DNA of 64,000 nucleotides from Minisyncoccota bacterium (GCA_028711065.1 JAQTSY010000003.1:1136-65135); one strand, 5' to 3'; counted from the first letter of the stretch, positions 9,728 through 56,811 are shown. A program made the numbers and translations. Notes: generated from the sequence alone by a model not told the origin.

Positions 9728-9891
9728 ATACATGAGCGAGACGGAGTCATATTTTTTCAGCAGAAAAAAGAGACGAGTCAGGGTCGTGAAAATTATTTCG
9801 TGACGACAAAATAATTATTCCTGACCACAAATAAAAAATCCAAACAGGATACTGAAGCTGTAAGCTTCGAGATTCCAACCCCCAATAGAAC

Positions 9892-17290: not shown

Positions 17291-17344
17291 CAGAAAATTT
17301 TGAAGAAATTTTCAGGCACCCAAGCAAAGCGCGGGGCGCTTTGC

Positions 17345-17445
17345 GGGAAGGGATCGAAGCCCCGATGAGCAGATTTTTAAGTTCGTAATCGAACGTAAAA
17401 AATCTCCATCGGGGATACTGGTCGTGTAACGACCGATACCCCAGG
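17345..17445 (+). ncRNA. Structured RNA-like element A (three-way junction): long hairpin ccccgatg...catcgggg, hairpin ggtcg-UGUAA-cgacc, and an outer stem. Unknown family.
   Basis: Stems identified by hand. It is paralogous to element B (17614..17716), and the two show compensatory stem changes. Confidence 0.35.
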
Positions 17446-17461
17446 TGCCTCAATAAACAAT

Positions 17462-17543
17462 GCCGGGGTGGCGAAATTGGCAGACGCACTTGCCTTAGGA
17501 GCAAGCGGAGTAATCCATGGAGGTTCAAGTCCTCTCCCCGGCA
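17462..17543 (+). tRNA. tRNA-Leu (anticodon TAG), class II.
   Basis: Acceptor gccgggg/ccccggc, loop ctTAGga, long variable arm. Confidence 0.85.
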
Positions 17544-17579: not shown

Positions 17580-17613
17580 TTTGGCACAGGAGTAAGTGCC
17601 AAAGGGCACTTAC

Positions 17614-17716
17614 GGGAGAGGACTTGAAGCCCGATTGAGCATTTTTTCTAGCTTTACTAAGCGAAGAAAAAATCCAATCGGGGTACTGCTCCTGTAAGGA
17701 GAAAGATTCTCTCCCC
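17614..17716 (+). ncRNA. Structured RNA-like element B: outer stem gggagag/ctctccc, hairpin cccgattg...caatcggg, hairpin ctcc-UGUA-aggag. Paralogue of element A.
   Basis: Shares the core GAAGCCCCGAUGAGCA...AUCGGGGUACUG with A, and stems differ by compensatory pairs (agattttt/aaaaatct versus attttttct/agaaaaaat). Confidence 0.35.
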
Positions 17717-35045: not shown

Positions 35046-36293
35046 TTAAGGAAGTTGTGGAATCGGCAGATTGAGAGCCGGACAAACATAATTATTTATG
35101 AAGCGTTGTGTCGTCTTATAGACATAACCAGTTGGAGTGTGCGCTGTCGGCAAGCCAAATGGTACCCATGGTGCTAGAACTTGCTCCCAATTCATAACCT
35201 GGAGTCTGTTTACGGCGTCTCTCGTCATCGGACCATAAAAACCATTTACCGGAAGACTCATTTTAAGATAACTATTGAGCAACGTCTGAAGTCTTTTTAC
35301 ATCTTCTGGATCATTTTTCCATCCATAATGAATATATGTTTTCAGATAGACACTGCAAGCTTCGGCTCCAAGTACTTCACCCTGGGTAGGACCGGTAGAT
35401 GCACCGAGCACTTCCCCGTTTCCCCCTCCTATTCCTCCATTTCCTCCACCTGCTCGTCCTCCACCTGAAGACCCTGAATTATGATGAGGAGTTGGCGTTG
35501 GCTCACTGGCGCCGTTCGGAGTCGGAGTTGGAGAAGGAGTCACCTTAGGAGTAGGAGTCGGTGTTGGTTCTGGCGTAGGAGTGAGAGTTGGTTCTGGAAT
35601 TGGCGTCGGCGAAAGAGTTGGCGACGGCGTAACGGTCGGAGTTGGAGTCGCCGTTGGAGTGGGTGTAAGAGTTGGTGTCGGTGAAGGAGTTACGGAAGGA
35701 GTCGGGGTTACGCTTGGTGTTGGTGTCACTGTCGGGGTTGGAGTGGCTGTCGGTGTTGGGGTTGGAGTAGCTGTGGGAGACGGAGTCGGTGTAGATGTTG
35801 GCGTCGGAGTTATTGAAGGAGTTGGGGTTGGTGTGGTCGTGGGTGTCGGAGACGGAGTAGGCGAAGAGGAGGGGGTGGGTGTGGGAGTTCCAGTTGGAGT
35901 CGGGGTCGGAGAAGGAGTTGCAACTGGAGTGGGAGTTGAAGTGGGCGAGGGGGTTGTGGACGGAGTTGGGGTTACGCTTGGTGTGGGTGTTACCGTTGGA
36001 GTAGGGGTTACACCCGGAGTTGGTGTTGGCGTTATGTCGGGTGTTGGCGAAGGAGTGGGCACGGGGGTCGGAGTTGCGGTCGGGCACTCACCAATACTAT
36101 CGCCATGATCGAGATGGGTTTGTAACGAACTTTCTCCGACCTGTATCGTTTGCGGATTTTCGGAATTACCAGGCGGATAATGACAGATTGTTATTTGGTT
36201 CTCACTCGGCTCTGCCTTCGTCGTATATGCAAAAACCCCAGCTGATGCTACGATGATTCCTATCAAAAAAAGGCCCAATAATTTATTTTTCAT
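35046..36293 (-). CDS. Secreted protein: N-terminal Cys-containing domain, long Pro/Thr/Ser linker, Gly-rich segment, and a C-terminal peptidoglycan-binding (PG_binding_1-like) domain.
   Basis: Signal peptide. About 200 aa of (T/S)PTP repeats. [16 protein letters not shown] motif. Confidence 0.5.
35500..36060. repeat. Coding low-complexity tandem repeat (PT/PS-rich linker) inside the 35046..36293 gene.
   Basis: Repetitive ggagttgg / ggtgtcgg units visible in the DNA. The antisense ORF 35581..36108 is an artefact of this repeat. Confidence 0.6.
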
Positions 36294-39263: not shown

Positions 39264-39439
39264 AAGAAAAACGACGAGAAAGCAAGAAACCGCTCTTGGG
39301 CGGTTTTTTGCTATACACATTGACTTTTTGGCGGAATTTTGTTTAAATAGATAGGTTAACAAACGCCCCCAGCGGGCTTTTTTTAGTAGAAAGCGGCCTA
39401 AAACTTTTTAATCTGAGGAAAGTGAGAGGTGAACATTGG

Positions 39440-39525
39440 GACGGGACCCAATGTGCAAGACCTTGAGTGTTCTGTACTCAGAATGCGAAAGGTGTACCGC
39501 TCCTGTAAGGAGAGGAGAAGGAAAA
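39440..39525 (+). ncRNA. Element C: a degenerate third copy of the A/B structured repeat family in the typA leader (shares GGGACGGGACCCAATGTGCA and GUACCGCUCC-UGUA-AGGAGA).
   Basis: About 20-nt identity with B over the UGUA hairpin, plus similarity to A's 5' core. Confidence 0.25.
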
Positions 39526-47173: not shown

Positions 47174-47428
47174 ATGCAATATGTTTATGTTTTGCAAAGC
47201 AAAAAAGACGGAGATTTATACACAGGATGTACAAAAGATTTAAAACGGAGGTTTGAATTGCATAATGCAAAAAAAGTCCCAGCTACAGCTCGTAGGACAC
47301 CACTTCGCCTGATATACTACGAAGCGTATCTAAATATGTATGATGCATATAAGCGCGAGAGTTATCTCAAAACGCAGTGGGGAAGAAATTATTTAAAGAA
47401 AACATTGAAGAACTTTTTTAATAGCTAA
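47174..47428 (+). CDS. GIY-YIG nuclease domain protein (84 aa, URI-like).
   Basis: YVYVLQSKKDGDLYTGCTKDLKRRFELHN. Confidence 0.75.
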   Translation: MQYVYVLQSKKDGDLYTGCTKDLKRRFELHNAKKVPATARRTPLRLIYYEAYLNMYDAYKRESYLKTQWGRNYLKKTLKNFFNS

Positions 47429-48950: not shown

Positions 48951-49112
48951 GCTCGAAATAGTTTTTGGAAACCCAGAAAACTGCCCCAGCGGGCAGTTTT
49001 CTTTGTGCTGGGCGCCGGCTGCTTTGTGGTATAGTTTTTGCCCGAAGCAAAAATTACACCACAAAGACCCTGCCAGCCTAGCGTGCGCGGGTTTCCAAAA
49101 ACTATTTCGAGC
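48951..49112. repeat. 162-bp palindromic element. A perfect 24-bp inverted repeat (gctcgaaatagtttttggaaaccc / gggtttccaaaaactatttcgagc) encloses two internal hairpins. Fills the convergent gap between the dsbA-like gene and the helicase.
   Basis: Inverted repeat verified base by base. Internal hairpins gaaaactgccc-cagc-gggcagttttc and ctttgtggt...accacaaag. The motif ATAGTTTTTG occurs three times. Confidence 0.5.
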
Positions 49113-49122
49113 TTGCGTGGTA

Positions 49123-50877
49123 CTAGAGAGTTTCTTTCTTCATCGGACACCATTCGCAATCTTTGTCGTCGCACGTATCTGTCAGAAATTTTCCGGACCA
49201 GACACTTTCGATGAGTGATTGGATTTCGTCTTTGACTCGTTTTTCATCTGCCGAGGTGATCGGGAGTGTTATCGTTGGACACCTACCCTTTGAGTCGGGT
49301 TTTATAAAAACAAGAGCCGGCTCTATACTTTTATTTTTATATTTTGTATTCCCCCCGAGCAAAATTTTGTAGAAAATGAGTTGGCGGAAATATCCCCCGT
49401 CGTCGCTTTTTGTTTCTCCTTTTATAGCATTCACACTCATTCCTTCCTTCGTTTTATAGTCATATACGAGCGTCTTATCCTGCCCATCCACTACGACGTC
49501 CAATTTGCCATGGAGCTTCAAAATGACCTCATTTCCGCCATATTTGCCCTCGTATGAGGCCTCTACCCACGTCTCGGTCAATACCTTACCTTCTGAATTA
49601 AGCAGCGAAATAAGGGCTTTTGCCACTTTAGGAGCATCTGCGAGAAGTGTCTCAACAGCGCCCTCTTTTTCAAACATCGGAAGAAGTGAGCGGTCAAAAT
49701 AGGCCTTCACGGTACTCTCAATCGTCGCCACAATACCCTCTTCGCTCTTATTGTCTTGGTGCCACACATACGAAAGCGCTTCATGCATAGCGTTTCCTTT
49801 TTCCGATGCCACACTTGGCGCTTCCGGCACTTTCAAAATACTTTTATATAAAAATTGGCTCGGGCAAGTCAGAAAATGATTGAGTGCGGTCACCGAAAGC
49901 CCCGATTCGGTCAAAACATTTTTTGCATACTCAATAATCTCCATTTTCTGCTTTTCTTCCCCCCCACTAGCAAGAACGGTTCTTGCTAGTGGGTTTCCAA
50001 ACAGAGCCGGTAGATCGGTCTGCGAAATAGATTTGGCGTCGAGCTCGGAAATAAATCGAAGCGGAGTAAATTCTTTTTTCAAAGCGTCTTGGAGCGGAGC
50101 AATTATCGAAGCGTGTTTTTTCGCCCGTGTGAGTGCTACATAGAAAAGTCGGCGGGCATCTCGCACTTCGTCTTCATCTCCTTTTTCTCGGGGCAAGATA
50201 AACGAGCTTCCGTGTCCGCGGGAGAGCCACGCTTCGTCTGTGGCATACGGCAAAAAGACATAATCAAACTCGAGCCCTTTGGAGCCGTGAGCCGTCATCA
50301 CCCGCACCTGCGAATCCGGCCGGCCCACTGTTATCTTTACGCTTTTCGTCTCCGCTGATTGCCGGTATGCCAGAAGTTCTTCGATTAAAACGCTCGGTGA
50401 TTGAATACTTTTTTCTTCCGCAATATCACTCGCGAGTGCAACAATCGTTCGCCAGACTTCCGCAGAAAGAGGATTTCTTTCCGCGAGCGTTTCAAATCCA
50501 GAAAGTTTCGCCGCGAGAACTAGGAAGTTTATCGCTCCGTCTTTGGTTATTTCTTTTTGGAGCTTCGCAATGGCGGGAATTTCGCTCCGCGAAATTCCCG
50601 CAAAGTCCCCTGCTCGTATCAAACGAATAAGTGCAGTCTTGCGAGCAAAATCAAGATTCCACAACCCCCCAGCAACAGTCCGAGCCAGTGCCTCCACATT
50701 CCCCGGATTCGCCAGGTATTCAATCAAATCAAAATAGAGCGCCCCGACAGGATGCGAAAAAATATCCGCTCCGCGTTCCGCCGAAGCCGGTATTCCATTT
50801 TGCTCGAGCAAAGCAAGTACCCGCTCCACATCCCGATTCCGTCGGACAATTATTGCGATAGTTGGTTTCTCTTTCAC
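49123..50877 (-). CDS. UvrD/PcrA-like helicase C-terminal half (motifs IV-VI) fused to a PD-(D/E)XK / Cas4-AddB-like nuclease with a Cys cluster. Fragment of a split gene, GTG start.
   Basis: VMTAHGSKGLEFDYVFLP (motif V/VI), C-terminal CEWCPMK. Begins exactly where the N-terminal fragment ends. Confidence 0.7.
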   Translation of the reverse strand: MKEKPTIAIIVRRNRDVERVLALLEQNGIPASAERGADIFSHPVGALYFDLIEYLANPGNVEALARTVAGGLWNLDFARKTALIRLIRAGDFAGISRSEIPAIAKLQKEITKDGAINFLVLAAKLSGFETLAERNPLSAEVWRTIVALASDIAEEKSIQSPSVLIEELLAYRQSAETKSVKITVGRPDSQVRVMTAHGSKGLEFDYVFLPYATDEAWLSRGHGSSFILPREKGDEDEVRDARRLFYVALTRAKKHASIIAPLQDALKKEFTPLRFISELDAKSISQTDLPALFGNPLARTVLASGGEEKQKMEIIEYAKNVLTESGLSVTALNHFLTCPSQFLYKSILKVPEAPSVASEKGNAMHEALSYVWHQDNKSEEGIVATIESTVKAYFDRSLLPMFEKEGAVETLLADAPKVAKALISLLNSEGKVLTETWVEASYEGKYGGNEVILKLHGKLDVVVDGQDKTLVYDYKTKEGMSVNAIKGETKSDDGGYFRQLIFYKILLGGNTKYKNKSIEPALVFIKPDSKGRCPTITLPITSADEKRVKDEIQSLIESVWSGKFLTDTCDDKDCEWCPMKKETL

Positions 50878-50881
50878 ACCT

Positions 50882-51772
50882 TCATTCTAGCAAATTTCCA
50901 CACAAGGAAACCAATCGTTCAAAATAAGTTTTAGCTAGTTCTTTTTTATCTTCCGGCAGTTTATCAATAGCTGCAGAAAGTTTTTCTTTGTCAAAATAAA
51001 TACTTGGATAAAATTCGTGATTTCTTTTAAGCCACGCGGGATTGAGTTCAAGATATTTGACAACTCCGTCTTTCAAAGAAAAATTCTGTCCGGCAGAATC
51101 TATGTTTAATCCACTTGCCTTTGCCAGACTTACAAACGTTTTCACCTCTGGTTTTTTTGATATTTCTTCTTGTAACAATCTTTCACTCTCGTCCCCCTCG
51201 GCAGTAAGCTCCTCTTGAAAATACTTCTTGTGTAAAGTTTGGAGCTTATCATGCGTTTCATCTGTTGAGACCCTGTCTGCTTTTAAGTAACCAGTGCGGT
51301 CATGCCAAGTTGCAAATGGATCATCTCCCCTTTCATTTGCGGCTAGATGTATTTCTGGAATATTTTCAGGGAATAAAAGGTGTGCAATTTTGTTGAGATA
51401 AAAAGCACTCTTTATTTGTTCATTTGTAAGCGGCATCTTGAATTCAGCATGAATTCTTTTCTCAGGATTTTCTGAATCAGCATATACTTTTTTGAAGTAT
51501 CCTTCGCCAATTGGTTCGCCGTGTTCCATAATAAGAAAAGTATACACCAACATAATCACTTGTTCACCCCCCTCCCCCAACCTGCTATAATCAGGATATA
51601 TGGGAAACTCGAGCGGAAAAAACATTGCCGGTGGTGTGGTGCATAGCATGCCGGCGGATTTGCGAAAGGCCATTGCCTCTGACAAAGCGGCACTTTCACT
51701 CTGGCAGGATATTACGCCGCTTGTGAGAAGTGGGTGAGTTGATGGGTAGGGACCCATCGACGCAAGACTCAT
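50882..51772 (-). CDS. Hypothetical protein inside the helicase insertion. Glycine-rich loop IGEGYFKKVY (kinase-like?). The start is probably an internal Met.
   Basis: ORF only. AT-rich like the host. Stop codon 4 nt before the helicase C-fragment start. Confidence 0.35.
   Translation of the reverse strand: MSLASMGPYPSTHPLLTSGVISCQSESAALSEAMAFRKSAGMLCTTPPAMFFPLEFPIYPDYSRLGEGGEQVIMLVYTFLIMEHGEPIGEGYFKKVYADSENPEKRIHAEFKMPLTNEQIKSAFYLNKIAHLLFPENIPEIHLAANERGDDPFATWHDRTGYLKADRVSTDETHDKLQTLHKKYFQEELTAEGDESERLLQEEISKKPEVKTFVSLAKASGLNIDSAGQNFSLKDGVVKYLELNPAWLKRNHEFYPSIYFDKEKLSAAIDKLPEDKKELAKTYFERLVSLCGNLLE
51733..51769. repeat. Hairpin-repeat copy 1 (ggtgagttGATGGGTagggACCCATCgacgcaagac). It is the inverted partner of 53781..53816, and a partial direct copy lies at 51814..51830.
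   Basis: 36 of 38 nt match the reverse complement of copy 2. Confidence 0.45.
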
Positions 51773-52152
51773 TGAGGGCTTTTATGAGCGAAGCAAAATA
51801 AAAGACCCAATGAGTGGATAGTGTCTGTAAGACAGGGACCCACTTCGCAAGGCCGGAGCCTGACGAGGCGAGGCAGGGCTGAAAGATTTTTCAGCAGAAA
51901 AATACTTTTGGCCGCAATGAGTGGATTTGCTGGGTCATCTCCGGCAAAAAGACGGAGACGCGAGACATCCGCAGGAAGAATGCCCTCTCAAAAATGAGAG
52001 GCGGAATGCGCCGCCCGTGTTGTTGGGTGGGCTGTACTCATCGGACGGATAAATCAATGAGTCGTTCCCAAAAATTCGTAGTTGGTAGAGGCAAATAAAA
52101 AACTGGGACAACGTTCGCACGTCATCCCAGAATGTTCTCCGTCAGAATAAAT

Positions 52153-52506
52153 TCACCCAGTAGTCTCTGAGTGGAAGCAATAGATGTGCCTCCCAGAATC
52201 AATCCGCCGCCTTTCAGCCTGCCATTCTTCGAAACGTGCCTTGTCGAGGCTAGCTCTTATCGCGAACAGGCACCGGAGCCGTGATTCTAACTCGGCCCGC
52301 ACAATGTCATCGGGGCGACGTACGAACTCGCCACGTGTATCCCCGGGTTGTGGGTCGTAGACCTTATCTTCAGGAAGAAGAGGCATTTTCACCGCACCCG
52401 CATCCGCCTCCGCCATCAACGCTGCAATCTCCTCTTTCGAGAGGTTTCTCTGGAATCTTTGAGGCATTGTCTTGCTCCTTTCTAAAATGACCTCGTCAGA
52501 CCACAC
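52153..52506 (-). CDS. Small GC-rich hypothetical protein (about 104 aa from the ATG with an AAAGGAG ribosome-binding site) inside the helicase insertion.
   Basis: ORF with a good Shine-Dalgarno sequence. GC about 58%. Confidence 0.35.
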   Translation of the reverse strand: MWSDEVILERSKTMPQRFQRNLSKEEIAALMAEADAGAVKMPLLPEDKVYDPQPGDTRGEFVRRPDDIVRAELESRLRCLFAIRASLDKARFEEWQAERRRIDSGRHIYCFHSETTG

Positions 52507-52513
52507 ACTAGCT

Positions 52514-53734
52514 CTAATTTTTCAAAATGTCTACTATTTCCTCCACCAAATACTTGTCGGCGGCTTCAGTATTCCCCGCCATGACCACCTCAACAGGCTT
52601 CGGCTTGTCTCCGTTTTCGGCAGAGAGTTTGATACGCAAATTTTTATGCTCCCCTTCGGCATAGTTATTCTCAATCATCGCAAAACTGGCGTCTAAAATG
52701 CTCTGATGCGAGCGGTAGTTGCCGGTGAGCGAAATGACCTTCATCCCCTTCCAGAGATTTTGAAAACGCAAAAAGTTCTCGACGGACGCGCCCTGGAAAC
52801 GGAAAATAGCCTGCTTCTCATCCCCCACCACGAAGAGATTGGGATTGTCGAAAAAGTCGGCGATAGCACGAATGAGCATATTTTGCGAATCATTGGTGTC
52901 CTGATGCTCGTCAACGAGAATGTAGAGAAATTTCTCCTGGAGCATTTGCAGAAGAAGCTTGTCGGTGCGCAGTGCTGTGAGAAGCTCGATGATGAGGTCG
53001 TCAAAATCCATTTTTCGGTCGGCGCGTTTCTTTTCTTCGTAGGCGAGATAGGCATCGGCAAAGATAATCGTGCGCTCGCATTTTTCAATTCGCTTCAATG
53101 CATCGCCTTTGAGCTGCCCTTTTGTCGGCCCGCGAGTGGAGAGAGATGCTTCATCCTGCTTCACCCGCTCGATTTCTTCAGTGGCAAAAGTCCGCACGAT
53201 TTCCGGCGTCCAAGCTTCTTTTTTGGAATCGCGGATTGCGCCGAGAATTTTGCCAACATAGAAATCCGGCTCGCCGGCAGGGCGGAGCTTCCCAAATTTC
53301 TTATCGCGCAAAATGGTGCGGACGAGGGTTTCCGATTCAATATCAGTGATTTGTTTGGTGCGGGAGAGATGCGGAAAATGATCCGGGAATTCGGCAATTA
53401 CAGAGCCAGCAAAGCCGTGATAGGTATGTACTCGCACCTCCTCTGCGCGCGCTCCGATGAGCGCGCGCAGTCTCCGCTTCATCTCTTTGGCCCCAGCTTC
53501 AGTGAAAGTCAAACACAAAATCCCGCTCGCAGGCGTGTCAGTCTTAAGCAAAATATTCCCAATCCGCAAAGCCAAAATCTGAGTCTTCCCCGTCCCCGGC
53601 CCCGCAATGACCATAACCGGGCCATCGATCGAGTCGACCGCGAGTTTCTGTTGTTTATTTAATTTTTTGTACTCTGCTTCGAATGTCGTCATTTTATTAT
53701 CAATGGTATCCACTTCCTTACAGGAACTGTACAC
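52514..53734 (-). CDS. UvrD/PcrA-like helicase N-terminal half (motifs I-III), fragment.
   Basis: AGPGTGKTQ (Walker A), DEHQDTN (motif II). Confidence 0.7.
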   Translation of the reverse strand: MYSSCKEVDTIDNKMTTFEAEYKKLNKQQKLAVDSIDGPVMVIAGPGTGKTQILALRIGNILLKTDTPASGILCLTFTEAGAKEMKRRLRALIGARAEEVRVHTYHGFAGSVIAEFPDHFPHLSRTKQITDIESETLVRTILRDKKFGKLRPAGEPDFYVGKILGAIRDSKKEAWTPEIVRTFATEEIERVKQDEASLSTRGPTKGQLKGDALKRIEKCERTIIFADAYLAYEEKKRADRKMDFDDLIIELLTALRTDKLLLQMLQEKFLYILVDEHQDTNDSQNMLIRAIADFFDNPNLFVVGDEKQAIFRFQGASVENFLRFQNLWKGMKVISLTGNYRSHQSILDASFAMIENNYAEGEHKNLRIKLSAENGDKPKPVEVVMAGNTEAADKYLVEEIVDILKN

Positions 53735-53780
53735 CTTTTGGACATTTTCTTTGTGATTACACTCGAAACTGTCTCAAAAG

Positions 53781-53816
53781 GTCTTGCGCCGATGGGTCCC
53801 TACCCATCAGCTCACC
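53781..53816. repeat. Hairpin-repeat copy 2 (inverted orientation), immediately upstream of the helicase N-fragment start.
   Basis: Reverse-complement match to 51733..51769. Confidence 0.45.
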
Positions 53817-53900
53817 TCCCCTGCTTTGGATTGAGTTTCTTATATTCCTCCTCGAATTTCATGCCCCAATTGTAGCATTGAAATCACGCTGAAGAAAAAA

Positions 53901-54704
53901 TTATCGGAAATTTGAAAAAGGGTCAACATCATCTCGCCGAGAGTGTTGCATCCTACCTTCTTCAAATATAATCTGCGCCAACTTACTTTTTAAGATCGAT
54001 AGATCGCCATTCTCAATGTCCTTTAGAAACGCTTCAATCTTGTCATAGCTGACAAAATCCACCAAAAAAGTTTTAGACACGTTTTCTTTCGGAGCTAATG
54101 TGTACGTGTAATCAAATTCCAGCTGGAAATTGTTTCGGATCTCTGAAAATTTCCTATCATCTCCCTCCTTCTTGAAAAAATTATCAAAACTCTTTGTAAC
54201 CACCACGGGAAGGTTATAGATGTAGTGAGTTTTTTCACGATAATTTTTCTCATAATAGATCAAAGAATGCACGCTCTGTGTCAAAGCATCATATATGTCA
54301 TCCCGTGTTGCACCCTTCCATGTTTTGGCGACATCCAAGCCTTTTAAATAATGGTTAGCGCGTAAATCAACATAGTCATCGTGCTTTAATATGGAATTAT
54401 CTTTCGCGAGAGTCTTTGCTTTTTCGGAGTTCTTTGTCACAAAATAAAACAAAGTCTCATTTTTTATATACTTACACTCTATAAAAAGTCTTATTAGTAT
54501 AGTTTTGCTTCCTCCCCAAAAGTCATCTTTTACGATAAATTCTTTTCTGGCAATGATATCTATTTCTCTAGATTTACCTGTTAGAACATCCATATAGTAT
54601 GAGGAGATTTGACATGCCCAACCAATGGATGTCAATAATCCAGCAGTATCATGCAAAAGCTCGTCTCCTCCTTCTTCGATGATTTTCAATATTTTTTCTG
54701 ACAT
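53901..54704 (-). CDS. Hypothetical protein with a PD-(D/E)XK-like motif (EIDII...IECKY). Candidate nuclease or defence gene divergent from the MTase.
   Basis: Weak motif only; no family recognised. Confidence 0.3.
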   Translation of the reverse strand: MSEKILKIIEEGGDELLHDTAGLLTSIGWACQISSYYMDVLTGKSREIDIIARKEFIVKDDFWGGSKTILIRLFIECKYIKNETLFYFVTKNSEKAKTLAKDNSILKHDDYVDLRANHYLKGLDVAKTWKGATRDDIYDALTQSVHSLIYYEKNYREKTHYIYNLPVVVTKSFDNFFKKEGDDRKFSEIRNNFQLEFDYTYTLAPKENVSKTFLVDFVSYDKIEAFLKDIENGDLSILKSKLAQIIFEEGRMQHSRRDDVDPFSNFR

Positions 54705-54808
54705 AAAGTGTTTGAATTCTACCCTTTTAAACTATCTTTTGCTAGAAAAAGAGTTAGCTGTGGATAAAACCTATAGAATCCAAAAAGGTATCATACTATA
54801 ATATATAC

Positions 54809-55897
54809 ATGCCTAGTGAACAGATCTTCAAAGCTGTATATTTTCCTGACTACAAAGAAGTAAACCCCAAAGCAAAAGGTTTTATTCTTGCTTTTGGCGA
54901 AAGAAATAAAGATCTCTATAAAAATATCTCAAGTTTTGGAAGCAATGAACTGCGGGAACTTCTGGGAACAAATTCTTATCTTGAATTGGAGCAACGGGCA
55001 CAACAGGAAGGATTACCTGTGAATACATATTGTCTTTGGTATTTGCGTAAAAATCTGGAGACGGTAGATAAAAGAAGCTGGCGAAATAAAACCAAAAAAA
55101 CGTTCGTTGATTTCGAAAACAAGGTTATCAAGGGTGATTGCCTTGATGTGATGGCGGATATACCCTCAAAATCGATCGACATGGTCTTGTGCGATCTTCC
55201 TTATGGAACAACACAAAACCACTGGGATAGTGTTATCCCTCTGGATAAATTATGGGGGCATTACAATCGAATCGTGAAAGATGATGGTGTCGTCGCGCTA
55301 ACAGGACAAGGGCTTTTTACAGCAAACTTGATGTTATCGAATCCTCAATCGTTCAAGTATAAAATAACCTGGGTAAAGTCAAAACCGACTAATTTCTTAA
55401 ACGCGAAAAAGCAACCACTCCGTAAACACGAAGACATTTGCATTTTTTATCGTGCTCAACCGAGATATACTCCGCAAATGACTTACGGAGAGCCTTATAA
55501 TAAAGGTTTCAGAAAAGATCAACTCACAGGAAGCTACGGCGATTTCAAAACTGTTGAAGTTAAAAGCAATGGTGAACGATACCCAACTGATGTCGTATAC
55601 TTCAAAACGGCAGAAAGTGAGGGCGAGGTATTCCATCCTACACAGAAACCAGTCGAGCTAGGACGCTATCTTATTCGCACTTACACAAACAAAGGAGACG
55701 TTGTTTTAGATAATACATGTGGAAGTGGAAGTTTTCTCGTATCAGCAGTTCTAGAGGGAAGAAAATTCATCGGTATCGAAAAAAATGAAGACATCTACCT
55801 CCACAGAAAAGAACAGACTGATTACATTGAAGTTTGCAAAAAGAGAATTAGACAAGCTCAAATGGAGTATAAAGCAAAAGCAGGTAAACTTCTTTAG
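54809..55897 (+). CDS. Type II DNA methyltransferase, beta-class amino-MTase (N6-adenine or N4-cytosine), with an about 100-aa N-terminal extension.
   Basis: Motif IV DLPYG precedes motif I VLDNTCGSGSF. Confidence 0.8.
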   Translation: MPSEQIFKAVYFPDYKEVNPKAKGFILAFGERNKDLYKNISSFGSNELRELLGTNSYLELEQRAQQEGLPVNTYCLWYLRKNLETVDKRSWRNKTKKTFVDFENKVIKGDCLDVMADIPSKSIDMVLCDLPYGTTQNHWDSVIPLDKLWGHYNRIVKDDGVVALTGQGLFTANLMLSNPQSFKYKITWVKSKPTNFLNAKKQPLRKHEDICIFYRAQPRYTPQMTYGEPYNKGFRKDQLTGSYGDFKTVEVKSNGERYPTDVVYFKTAESEGEVFHPTQKPVELGRYLIRTYTNKGDVVLDNTCGSGSFLVSAVLEGRKFIGIEKNEDIYLHRKEQTDYIEVCKKRIRQAQMEYKAKAGKLL

Positions 55898-56811
55898 ATT
55901 CCTGTGTATGGTTCTTCTTGGAGAACATTCCGCGCTTTTTCGATTTCAGCTTCAGTAACAATTCCCTTTTCTTTCAAATATTTAAGAAGGTGAAAATATT
56001 GATTTGCGTGTAAAATAGGTTTTACAATTTTTTGCAAATTTAATTCTTTTTGAACCAGAGAAAGATGTTTTTCAGAAAGAACACCGCGCCCTATTAGATC
56101 GTAAGTGATTCGTAAAGCATCAACTGCTGTCAAATTCAAATCACCGCTGTGTGTTTTGTCCTGTTCAATATCCGAAGGTTCAATGCTTAAAAGATCGTTT
56201 ATTTCATTAAATCCATTCAGATTTCGATTGTAATATTCTATTTCTTGTCCTCGATAAGTGAACCATGTTCTTCCTTGTTCAGTGAGAGAGCCTCGCGGTA
56301 AATAAACACCTTCGTGTATTACTCGTTCTTTTGATGCCCAACCGCAGATATAAAGTATCCATTTCCTTTGTCTTGTTGTACCAGGAAGATCCCTCTTGCT
56401 CGGAGTTTCCAGATGAGTCATCACATAAATATCAGCGTCCAGCCTTTCATCATACATCTGCCGGGCAAAGAAATTATGCTTTGCTTCCCTTACAATACCA
56501 TCACTGCTTTCGTATTCCTCTTTGAATGGTAAAGCCCCGCCGCGACACTTTACATCAACCTTTATCCCAGAGGGAAGTAAAATGTCATACCCGAGAGGAT
56601 GATCCTCAGGTTTGATTTCTGGCATACCCAACTTATTTCGTATAACTATCTCCGCAAGCGCGCCAAACCCCTGCTCTTCTGAACTACCCCGTTCTGCACC
56701 GGTACTATTTTTATTTGCTGCTAAGTAATCGGCAGCTTTTTGTCTTAGTTGGAAACCTAACTCGTCTGCGAGTTTCAAGACTATGGGTTTGGGGTGAAAA
56801 TATTTATACAT
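55894..56811 (-). CDS. Candidate type II restriction endonuclease (PD-(D/E)XK). Convergent with the MTase, with a 4-nt overlap.
   Basis: E...GYDILLPSGIKVDVKCRG (D...DVK signature). Confidence 0.45.
   Translation of the reverse strand: MYKYFHPKPIVLKLADELGFQLRQKAADYLAANKNSTGAERGSSEEQGFGALAEIVIRNKLGMPEIKPEDHPLGYDILLPSGIKVDVKCRGGALPFKEEYESSDGIVREAKHNFFARQMYDERLDADIYVMTHLETPSKRDLPGTTRQRKWILYICGWASKERVIHEGVYLPRGSLTEQGRTWFTYRGQEIEYYNRNLNGFNEINDLLSIEPSDIEQDKTHSGDLNLTAVDALRITYDLIGRGVLSEKHLSLVQKELNLQKIVKPILHANQYFHLLKYLKEKGIVTEAEIEKARNVLQEEPYTGI

Follow-up and report, generated by a model that had tools for sequence, protein, structure and literature searches.

A conserved helicase-nuclease gene divided by patchwork accessory DNA in a Paceibacteria genome

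In a Paceibacteria (CPR) genome sampled as a MAG contig, a conserved DNA-repair helicase-nuclease gene that is normally single is present as two intact reading frames, separated by a gap of 1,636 bp. The intervening DNA is a patchwork of accessory sequence, neither an intron nor a transposon. On balance, we lean towards the view that the gene was broken by this accessory patch, which is not a self-mobile element, and that the two halves reassemble into a working enzyme. The original prediction made from the sequence had described a split UvrD-like helicase-nuclease, an insertion into the gene and an inverted hairpin repeat with a partial third copy, all of which are borne out below, together with several interpretations that are revised.

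The two halves and their intact relatives

Both halves are encoded on the minus strand of the window, by which we mean the whole 64-kb stretch of DNA that was analyzed. The N half (52514..53713, NCBI protein MDD5050474.1) comprises domains 1A and 1B, motifs I–IV and the opening strand and helix of domain 2A, and matches the Pfam family UvrD-helicase (PF00580, E=2.9e-59); its start is the GTG at 53713 according to NCBI, an ATG being also available at 53692, and its stop is the TAG at 52514-52516. The C half (49123..50877, MDD5050471.1), whose first codon is the GTG at 50877, supplies what remains of domain 2A, together with domain 2B, motifs V–VI and a PD-(D/E)XK nuclease with four cysteines, and matches UvrD_C (PF13361, E=2.1e-19) and PDDEXK_1 (PF12705, E=1.4e-24). 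The ORFs are those initially proposed, except that motif IV (NYRS), formerly placed in the C half, sits in the N half. With motifs I–VI in order, and PF00580 and PF13361 divided between the two ORFs, the protein belongs to the UvrD/PcrA-type SF1A helicases; its top solved relative is PcrA (E=1e-47), followed by others such as Rep, UvrD and AdnB. The nuclease domain is of the Cas4/AddB type by its PF12705 match, the match to Cas4 itself being weak, and the cysteines (one N-terminal, three C-terminal) lie in LTCPSQF and TCDDKDCEWCP. The whole may be described as a putative Fe-S-type PD-(D/E)XK nuclease fused to a UvrD/PcrA-type SF1A motor.

The position of the break is exact. In alignment, the two halves join end to end on intact orthologues of about 975 residues with no residue missing, and they are contiguous as well on the PcrA, UvrD and RecB models. 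The orthologues vary at this point by a 3-residue indel, and the break lies in a variable surface loop of the RecA-like domain 2A. As first described, the N half closes with ...EIVDILKN-TAG, and an in-frame TAG precedes the C-half GTG by three codons. The stop is the very first codon of the insert, and the C half starts one codon ahead of the resumed homology, a placement so exact that, by our own estimate, chance would produce it in <1% of cases. Both helicase frames are open across 2.9 kb, without frameshifts or stops, and changes at conserved sites number 15 specific to the window versus 14 in the orthologue. A Shine-Dalgarno sequence at good spacing is lacking from both halves.

Of 7,694 relatives, every one of the best 120 is intact (954–1034 aa), and the closest orthologue, 88% identical, is syntenic across 17 kb. 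The split is found in this one MAG only and in none of the best 120 of 7,694, a list that split copies would not reach. Intact orthologous DNA without the insert, 80–85% identical, is available from the contig L001, with the same neighboring dsbA-like, exonuclease and hisS genes. Judging from such sequence comparisons, the helicase-nuclease is a core-genome gene of its clade, near-universal, syntenic and single-copy, and it forms a clade-specific family that scores far under every NCBIfam equivalog cut-off. No adjacent partner-subunit gene is present in the relatives, and no second copy of the gene lies within the 64-kb window, which covers only part of the genome, so that an intact paralogue may exist elsewhere. 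This near-universal, syntenic, single-copy distribution, with the best 120 of 7,694 relatives intact, argues against the suggested 'defence-type helicase'. Gabija or another defence helicase was likewise rejected, the PADLOC matches to GajB reflecting generic UvrD similarity in a near-universal family with conserved neighbors. As for the proposal of a deliberate two-subunit arrangement, it is not the ancestral state because no relative has one, but it is the likeliest functional outcome of the split.

Contents of the insert

The insert (50878..52513, minus strand) is missing in its entirety from the orthologous L001 DNA. Its smaller ORF (52153..52467, minus strand; 104 aa, 55% GC) does possess the canonical ribosome-binding site ascribed to it, AAAGGAG 7 nt ahead of the ATG at 52467. 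No relatives of this orphan were found among proteins, JGI metagenome DNA, Pfam, PHROGs or PADLOC, NCBI leaves it unannotated, and its standing as a real gene is uncertain. An intrinsic terminator (52095..52130, minus strand) consists of a 12-bp stem followed by TTTTTTATTT, the same hairpin appearing in the computed fold; it is predicted to be strong and would end the transcription unit of the N half.

What had been taken for GC-rich non-coding DNA turns out to be a decayed gene of the OmdA/YdeI family on the opposite strand (51600..52095, plus strand; N part at about 51648-51728, C part at about 51880-52020), interrupted by repeat elements. The GC enrichment first noted is modest, at 0.49–0.55 as compared with 0.475–0.495 in the helicase and 0.445 in the window. 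Its separate halves match PF13376 with E=9e-4 and 1e-4, and the artificially joined sequence with E=4e-13; since a full match to this single domain of about 60 residues needs such joining, the gene is regarded as a pseudogene remnant. A 45-aa stub of it is annotated as MDD5050473.1.

The larger ORF, initially given as 296 aa, corresponds to a true gene of 215 aa (50882..51529, minus strand), AT-rich, with a promoter-like site at 51539-51566 in a promoter scan and a stop codon (TGA, 50882-50884) 4 nt ahead of the C-half GTG. Its family counts 384 cluster representatives. Modeling from an alignment of just 2 sequences was of no use (pLDDT 44); the AlphaFold2 model has a pLDDT of 94 and is matched by Foldseek to kinases with probability 1.0, sequence matches to NleH and HopBF1 being weak. 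The modeled product is thus predicted to be a minimal protein-kinase-like fold. A tie between this gene and the helicase was considered and abandoned, for although one homologue in L006 is situated some 1 kb upstream of a helicase-nuclease, that gene shows no more than 28% identity, and further homologues lie elsewhere. P0124, a 45-aa 'cluster representative' for the C half, was discarded as an artefact of clustering with no relation to it.

Neither Pfam nor NCBIfam identifies a transposase or integrase in the insert, its ends bear no TIR or TSD (the similarity between them is matched by 498/2000 shuffles) and the sole long inverted repeat does not bound it; the insert as a whole is therefore not the MITE or transposon that had been suggested. 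An intein was rejected on account of several in-frame stops directly after the N half, and a free-standing homing endonuclease on account of the protein-kinase-like fold of the 215-aa ORF, the 104-aa ORF having no family detectable by sequence.

The structured repeat and the recombination scars

The hairpin GATGGGTAGGGACCCATC occurs exactly 2 times in 64 kb, in opposite orientation, against a chance expectation of 0.02. These inverted arms are parts of two repeat elements, E2 (arm A; 51733..51838, plus strand; CM R1 92.8 bits, E=2e-19; fold z=-6.1) and E1 (arm B; 53710..53816, minus strand; CM R1 90.2 bits, E=8e-19; fold z=-5.8), the latter being now the leader of the N half. They are identical at 36 of 38 positions in the first hairpin (H1) and flanking bases, and their similarity reaches 44 nt at 89% identity (51733-51776 vs. 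53773-53816), with 20 nt as the longest exact stretch common to both arms and several differences between them. E2 is nested in H1 of a further partial copy, with arms at 51722-51732 and 51839-51856, and the third partial hairpin copy, GGGACCCACTTCGCAAGG, is found at 51835-51852; E1 is a chimera of an E2-like 5' half and a 3' half of another subtype. The repeated motif CAATGAGTGGAT does occur twice, one copy within the RNA element, but its count is not significant alone, two or more matches being found in 9/100 shuffles.

The hairpin and one CAATGAGTGGAT copy are parts of an RNA element of about 100 nt with three hairpins. The proposed check for more copies revealed six in the window (CM R1) and 92 in 80 metagenome contigs, the contig total being also put at >100. 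Twenty of 22 base pairs covary, one conserved pair is G-U, and the consensus GGUGAG-H1-GCAAG-H2-GUACNG-YUCC UGUAA GGAR includes long invariant single-stranded boxes; the hairpin sequence varies between copies, wide conservation being limited to the 3' box. Copies often adjoin tRNA genes in the same orientation, rRNA genes also lie beside copies, and both tandem arrays (in metagenome contigs) and nesting (in the window and in L010) are observed. A copy lies upstream of bipA in the window, at a spot where L001 has none.

Searches against Rfam 15 gave no match at E<=10 for two copies and none at gathering scores across 16 repeat-carrying loci; a T-box, hammerhead, SRP or RNase P RNA was rejected, the element being multi-copy and lacking Rfam support. 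No protein family recurs near the 92 copies, the commonest one, a housekeeping gene, occurring in 5/80 loci, and the copies showed neither TIR nor TSD nor an associated transposase. As a genome-wide DNA repeat the hairpin was discarded, its exact 20-mer yielding two chance matches, from unrelated phyla, in 185,579 species genomes; an 18-mer scan of viral contigs gave zero matches. An inversion between E1 and E2 was discarded, as it would restore no gene order, and nothing relevant was found in the literature on the sequence of the repeat or on CPR split genes. Taken together, the element appears to be a widespread, uncatalogued structured RNA repeat.

Upstream of the N half lies a relic of the ancestral 5' end of the helicase gene (53812..53905, minus strand), with an 87.5% match to L001 9986-10041, where the intact orthologue begins. 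It retains an extended -10 box (TGCTACAAT, 53869-53877), which by its sequence would act as a promoter, the ATG at 53862 and 14 native codons (MKFEEEYKKLNPKQ), and is now a 16-codon stub ending at the TGA 53812-53814. Codons 1-14 are duplicated and diverged, and similarity switches at about codon 26. Third-position identity to L001 amounts to 0.68–0.95 for codons 40-280, 0.3–0.55 for codons 300-380 and about 0.5–0.7 for the C half, whereas neither a dip nor a peak of this kind is seen in the outgroups L012 and L014. The N half thus appears to be a recombination mosaic.

Origin and fate of the split gene

From these scars, the patch was most likely acquired by illegitimate or homology-facilitated recombination. 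Homology-facilitated illegitimate recombination, said to take place in natural transformation, joins foreign DNA by homology on one side and by an illegitimate junction on the other; it would account for the diverged duplicate of codons 1-14 and for the switch of similarity at about codon 26, and would here need several events or template switches. The patch, made up of the orphan ORF with the terminator, the dead OmdA gene, repeat copies and the kinase-fold gene, would have landed where dispersed structured repeats abound, and this recombination would also have left the old 5'-end stub and handed the N half its new leader. Given the anatomy present in the DNA, transcription of the N half would start at the old promoter, pass the stub and E1 and halt at the terminator past the orphan ORF, and the C half would be a second cistron after the kinase-fold gene, translated by termination-reinitiation (TGA, 4 nt, GTG). 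The two polypeptides would then reassemble non-covalently, strand complementation completing domain 2A, and the two-piece enzyme probably still assembles. Retained function is favored by the intact frames of both halves while the co-inserted OmdA gene is wrecked, and by the lack of a second copy in the window; OmdA may have been dead before acquisition, however, and if it was already so on arrival, the argument that time has passed is weaker. The location of the split inside a RecA-like domain, and not between domains, speaks against it.

The main rival is a fresh pseudogene, in which the insertion killed the gene and both frames are open merely because too little time has passed. We hold it to be possible, though less probable than the reading just given: the split is intradomain, the translation signals of both halves are weak, it occurs once with the best 120 of 7,694 relatives as reference, recombination scars litter the region and the 36/38 identity of E1 and E2 suggests recent events. 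On the other hand, stop and start stand exactly at the junctions with zero residues lost, 2.9 kb have remained free of frameshifts and stops next to a shattered OmdA, conserved sites show no excess of changes and the gene is near-universal in the clade. Rather unlikely, in our opinion, is an insert brought by or within a mobile unit based on the structured repeat (REP/MITE-like, mobilized in trans) and marked by the inverted E1/E2. Six copies per 64 kb, copies nested in others, the interruption of the OmdA gene by the repeat, the copy upstream of bipA and the tandem arrays would all suit such a unit; E1 and E2, however, flank the N half and part of the insert instead of the insert ends, a TSD is absent, no protein family recurs near the copies, and the conserved G-U pair and tRNA co-orientation point to an RNA-level function and not to a DNA transposon.

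A metagenome assembly chimera would be compatible with a MAG contig as the source, with the mosaic helicase and with a related population, L001, that is apparently from the same study by its accession series only. We deem it very improbable, as the repeat arms share at most 20 nt exactly and differ at several positions, which we reason to be too short and imperfect to mis-join assembly graphs, the junctions fall at codon boundaries with both frames preserved and the mosaic segments are diverged and not identical copies. The idea of an intron-like insertion, that is, a self-splicing group I/II intron with internal ORFs that restores a single mRNA, is barely tenable. At AAT/TAG...GTG/AAA, the last base is U for the 5' exon and G for the insert, as at group I boundaries (a fit with a random chance of 1-in-16), precise removal would yield the orthologue length, and the non-coding part of the insert folds better than shuffled sequence (z=-4.6). 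This z-score is nevertheless equal on both strands, and the fold is explained by the repeat copies and the dead opposite-strand gene. Rfam gave no group I/II match at E<=1 over 6 kb, nor at E<=10 when the insert was scanned by itself; as a positive control, this library picks up a 23S rRNA group I intron (RF00028, 53 bits) on the repeat-carrying metagenome contig L079. A strong terminator lies within the insert, against a continuous precursor, and Pfam scans reveal no RT domain in either ORF; a homing endonuclease is likewise absent, the larger ORF being kinase-fold. A GTGTG that fits the group II 5' end (GUGYG) is present at 52503-52507 but comes after in-frame stops.

A more far-reaching reading, which we put forward tentatively and with low confidence, would see in the repeat a structured RNA class new to Patescibacteria, transcribed together with tRNA and rRNA operons and also spreading or recombining within genomes; here it would have provided the N half with its new leader and seeded the rearrangement, the split enzyme working as two separately controlled subunits.

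Reassembly of the halves after disruption by accessory DNA, the reading we prefer, has parallels. The nrdA gene of Aeromonas phage Aeh1 is reportedly split by a free-standing homing-endonuclease gene, mobE. In both cases foreign DNA in a conserved enzyme gene gives rise to two ORFs with a new stop and start at the junction, without splicing, and the halves are thought to reassemble; unlike Aeh1, the present host is a chromosome, no homing endonuclease is found (the larger ORF is kinase-fold, the smaller an orphan) and the insert holds a dead gene and repeat elements. The reverse gyrase of Nanoarchaeum equitans, a natural split gene of a reduced genome, is encoded in two pieces and is also a helicase-containing enzyme made as two polypeptides by an ultrasmall symbiont-type genome. 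Natural splits in such reduced genomes are located at domain boundaries, unlinked and lineage-fixed, whereas the present one is intradomain, adjacent and confined to one genome with an intact closest relative. The enzyme itself resembles AddA, AdnB, RecB and PcrA/UvrD in its SF1A motor and its C-terminal PD-(D/E)XK nuclease with the Cas4/AddB-type cysteine set; in contrast to these, it has about 975 residues, stays below all NCBIfam equivalog cut-offs and has no adjacent partner-subunit gene in its relatives. Like REP/BIME and MITE repeats and the GOLLD and ROOL ncRNAs, whose tRNA proximity has been described (PMC5737381), the element of about 100 nt is multi-copy, intergenic, hairpin-rich, nested or tandem and often tRNA-adjacent. 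It differs from them in its three covarying hairpins, long invariant single-stranded boxes and conserved G-U pair, in that searches revealed no TIR, TSD or transposase associated with it, and in its absence from Rfam 15.

Almost nothing is known of RNA biology in this phylum, and a strongly covarying element that is absent from Rfam and lies beside tRNA and rRNA genes is a concrete candidate there for a functional or mobile RNA of a new kind. Public annotation presents the halves as two unrelated proteins, so that automatic pipelines would miscount the repair function. The intradomain site of fission bears on the origins of split genes and on the tolerance of SF1 helicases to backbone breaks. 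If the halves cooperate, this would be gene fission caught in the act in a reduced CPR genome, brought about by junk DNA and not by a selfish endonuclease.

The split helicase-nuclease gene

The four minus-strand ORFs placed in this region by the original prediction were recovered at their proposed positions. The N-terminal helicase domain of UvrD (E=2.9e-59) is encoded by the N ORF (52514..53734), which also covers the initial 64 positions of UvrD_C, and the C ORF (49123..50877) encodes the remainder of UvrD_C together with a PD-(D/E)XK nuclease domain (E=1.4e-24); consecutive parts of the PcrA, UvrD and RecB models are covered by the N ORF and then the C ORF. The junction also reads as predicted, the N ORF ending in ...EIVDILKN-TAG and the C ORF starting at a GTG three codons past an in-frame TAG, with 1,636 bp between the two. 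Helicase motif IV had been assigned to the C half; the corresponding NYRS is found in the N half instead. In the NCBI annotation the halves are separate proteins, a "PD-(D/E)XK nuclease family protein" (MDD5050471.1) and an "ATP-dependent helicase" (MDD5050474.1), and the split is unflagged.

A search with the joined halves yielded 7,694 relatives, of which the best 120 are without exception single proteins of 954–1034 aa with a query coverage of 98–100%, and those with a named source are from Patescibacteria, Paceibacteria or Parcubacteria. The nearest among these 120 is P0001 (969 aa, 88% identity), encoded on the contig L001, which between ~36.7 kb and 53.9 kb of the window is colinear with it and has the dsbA-like, exonuclease and hisS genes downstream as well. 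In the alignment with intact orthologues, the end of the N half and the start of the C half fall in adjacent columns, in keeping with the proposed split of one gene. The break site is a short variable linker, in which P0001 is 3 aa shorter and LKN plus KEKP gives the exact length of most orthologues; by comparison with the known structures of PcrA and UvrD, we take it to lie inside RecA-like domain 2A, between the first helix and the second strand. Among proteins of solved structure, the best relatives are PcrA, Rep, UvrD and AdnB. The gene had been described as a defence-type helicase, and PADLOC indeed gives GajB matches; these reflect generic UvrD similarity and come without a partner gene. 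Considering in addition its near-universal presence in the clade and the synteny, the split gene belongs to the clade's housekeeping functions, as a helicase-nuclease, and is not a defence gene.

Other elements are present in the window. The spacer that separates the helicase stop from the dsbA-like gene carries a 162-nt palindromic element (48951-49112) with perfectly complementary 24-nt arms around two further hairpins, one terminator-like (MFE -99.6 kcal/mol, z=-12); the orthologous spacer of L001 has only 53 nt, and no other copy was found in the window or the other loci analysed. An 84-aa GIY-YIG ORF between hisS and the exonuclease gene (47174-47428) weakly matches a GIY-YIG homing endonuclease in PHROG (E=0.002), at a site where L001 has only a 19-nt spacer. 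At 35515-36050 there is a long imperfect repeat of 6- to 18-nt periodicity, one frame of which encodes a Gly/Val-rich (GVGV...) stretch.

Content of the insert

On the gene strand (minus), the insert carries a 104-aa orphan ORF (52153..52467) preceded by AAAGGAG-N7-ATG, absent from the NCBI annotation and without a relative among 5.8 billion proteins, in JGI metagenome DNA or in family searches including PADLOC, and a strong intrinsic terminator (52130-52095; 12-bp stem, then a T-run). The core described as GC-rich is only modestly so (0.49–0.55 GC, versus 0.475–0.495 in the helicase and 0.445 in the window). In the ~570 nt described as non-coding DNA, two fragments of an OmdA/YdeI gene are found on the plus strand, with E=9e-4 and 1e-4 singly and, when artificially joined, E=4e-13 over positions 4–58 of the 60-position profile. 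The 45-aa stub of this dead gene is annotated by NCBI as a hypothetical protein (MDD5050473.1). The predicted 296-aa ORF is corrected to a 215-aa gene (50882..51529, minus), whose family comprises 384 cluster representatives. Its model (pLDDT 94) resembles protein kinases and aminoglycoside phosphotransferases, with weak sequence matches to YrbL and to two minimal kinases, NleH and HopBF1; homologues are housed in small accessory gene clusters, where OmdA and DUF2200 genes are sometimes present.

No transposase, integrase, reverse transcriptase or endonuclease domain was detected in the insert, and its ends show neither an inverted repeat nor a target duplication. An intron-like nature had been suggested; the Rfam scan gave no intron match even at E<=10, while its positive control, a group I intron in the 23S rRNA gene of a repeat-carrying metagenome contig (L079, 365-588), was detected.

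A three-hairpin repeat element

The hairpin GATGGGTAGGGACCCATC, predicted to be repeated, is present in two oppositely oriented copies in the 64 kb, for a chance expectation of 0.02 copies, and forms with its flanks a 44-nt inverted repeat of 89% identity. This hairpin makes up stem H1, the first in an element ~90–110 nt long with the layout GGUGAG - H1 - GCAAG - H2 - G(U/G)A(C/U)NG - H3 (YUCC-UGUAA-GGAR), in which the H1 loop is AGGG or UGGG in many copies and H2, a hairpin that is long and rich in AU, has ACCUUUUG/CAAAAGGU or ACUCAUUG/CAAUGAGU as its closing strands. The two CAATGAGTGGAT copies proposed as a further motif are not significant on their own; the first is the 3' strand of H2 with the box after it, the second the N-E-W-I codons of the OmdA/YdeI gene.

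A covariance model built on four copies recovers six in the window: E1 (53816-53710), E2 (51733-51838), one upstream of bipA (39428-39516) where the same spot in L001 has none, and three just downstream of tRNA genes (9785-9871, 17335-17437, 17591-17705). E2 lies inside the first hairpin of a further, incomplete copy, which accounts for what had been counted as a partial third copy. The repeat is occasionally nested or tandem, and in another Paceibacteria genome (L010) one copy lies within the H2 loop of another. E1 is itself a recombinant, since its H1 half is nearly identical to that of E2 (36/38) and the two copies differ in the subtype of H2 and H3. The 3' portion of a tRNA gene, with the T arm and the acceptor (17514-17538), recurs inverted 75 nt downstream (17614-17638), at the start of a repeat copy.

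A 25-nt box from the 3' end of the element has matches in at least 120 metagenome contigs, in 80 of which the covariance model finds 92 mostly full-length copies (87 complete); conservation of the 3' box is built into this search, whereas the 5' boxes are free of that bias. Paired cells amount to 95.5%, compared with 27–53% in slid controls, and compensatory changes occur in 20 of 22 pairs, with one conserved G-U pair. Independent use of MAFFT and RNAalifold recovered all three hairpins; here 16 of 20 pairs show compensatory changes. The element is enriched beside tRNA and 5S rRNA genes. A same-strand tRNA gene lies within 150 nt for 29 of 99 copies (19 of these 15–120 nt downstream); one copy is located between 5S rRNA and tRNA-Ala and one adjoins a LOOT RNA (L031, 1418-1539), 130 nt downstream of the repeat in that metagenome contig. 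Near the copies no recurrent protein family was found.

Probable origin of the insertion and possible retained function

Upstream of the N half, positions 53877-53822 match the very start of the L001 orthologue at 87.5%, over 14 codons with their ATG and the TGCTACAAT box that precedes it. This relic now terminates after 16 codons; the next ~130 nt form E1, and then the first codons recur in a second copy, far more diverged (MTTFEAEYKKLNKQQ), that runs into the N half. Third-position identity to L001 is near random in the first ~25 codons, 0.68–0.95 in codons 40–280, 0.3–0.55 in codons ~300–380, where the amino-acid sequence resembles the allele of the more distant relatives P0002 and P0008, and about 0.5–0.7 in the C half; pS of the flanking genes is 0.54–0.76. 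This comparison at synonymous sites shows the helicase to be a mosaic. Because the outgroups display no regional slowing, these patterns are recombination tracts. Synteny with L001 ends at the relic; the 3 kb beyond (53901-56811) contain a type II N6/N4 DNA methyltransferase (54809-55897) with an ORF on either side (267 and 305 aa), neither with a detected family, and are probably a restriction-modification island.

Judging from sequence, the insertion would have arisen by illegitimate or homology-facilitated recombination, or by template switching during replication, in a population that recombines naturally and within a region rich in repeats. Such an origin fits the scars better than a self-mobile element of any kind would; these scars are the diverged 5' codon duplicate, the abrupt similarity switches, the chimeric E1, the dead gene interrupted by nested repeats and the absence of element ends. 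A mobile unit mediated by the repeat is a possible but less probable source. Only 20 exact bases are common to the repeat arms and the junctions fall on codon boundaries, which makes an artefact of assembly unlikely.

Ahead of the N half come the old promoter-like box, the stub and E1, and after it the orphan ORF and the terminator. For the kinase-fold gene there is a separate promoter-like site (TGAACA-16-TATACT) that ends 10 nt short of its ATG, and the stop of this gene precedes the C half GTG by 4 nt. The most likely arrangement would be two transcription units, with translation of the C half coupled to the kinase-fold gene and the halves joining non-covalently. We lean slightly towards a functional two-piece enzyme. 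Both frames are open across 2.9 kb while the co-inserted OmdA gene is shattered, although OmdA may have been dead on arrival, which counts against this argument; the insert opens directly with the stop codon of the N half, and the C half starts one codon ahead of the resumed homology, a coincidence estimated at <1% with each event at about 5–10%. Window-specific changes at conserved sites number 15, versus 14 in P0001, the window holds no second helicase-nuclease copy, and the gene is near-universal in the clade. Against function stand the intradomain split, the poor ribosome-binding sites and the single occurrence of the split; a fresh pseudogene is the less likely alternative.

The case in the window is gene fission by insertion, a kind already known. 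Its closest functional precedent is the "gene in pieces" produced by a free-standing homing-endonuclease gene, whose defining endonuclease was looked for in the insert and not found. It resembles the split genes of Nanoarchaeum as well, although here the break lies within a domain, the two parts are neighbours and the split is not a fixed trait of the lineage. The structured repeat, not found in Rfam 15 and unplaced in any catalogued family, is a more novel by-product than the gene split: with its ~100 nt and three hairpins, it may represent a new class of RNA or else an RNA-like repeat that is mobile.
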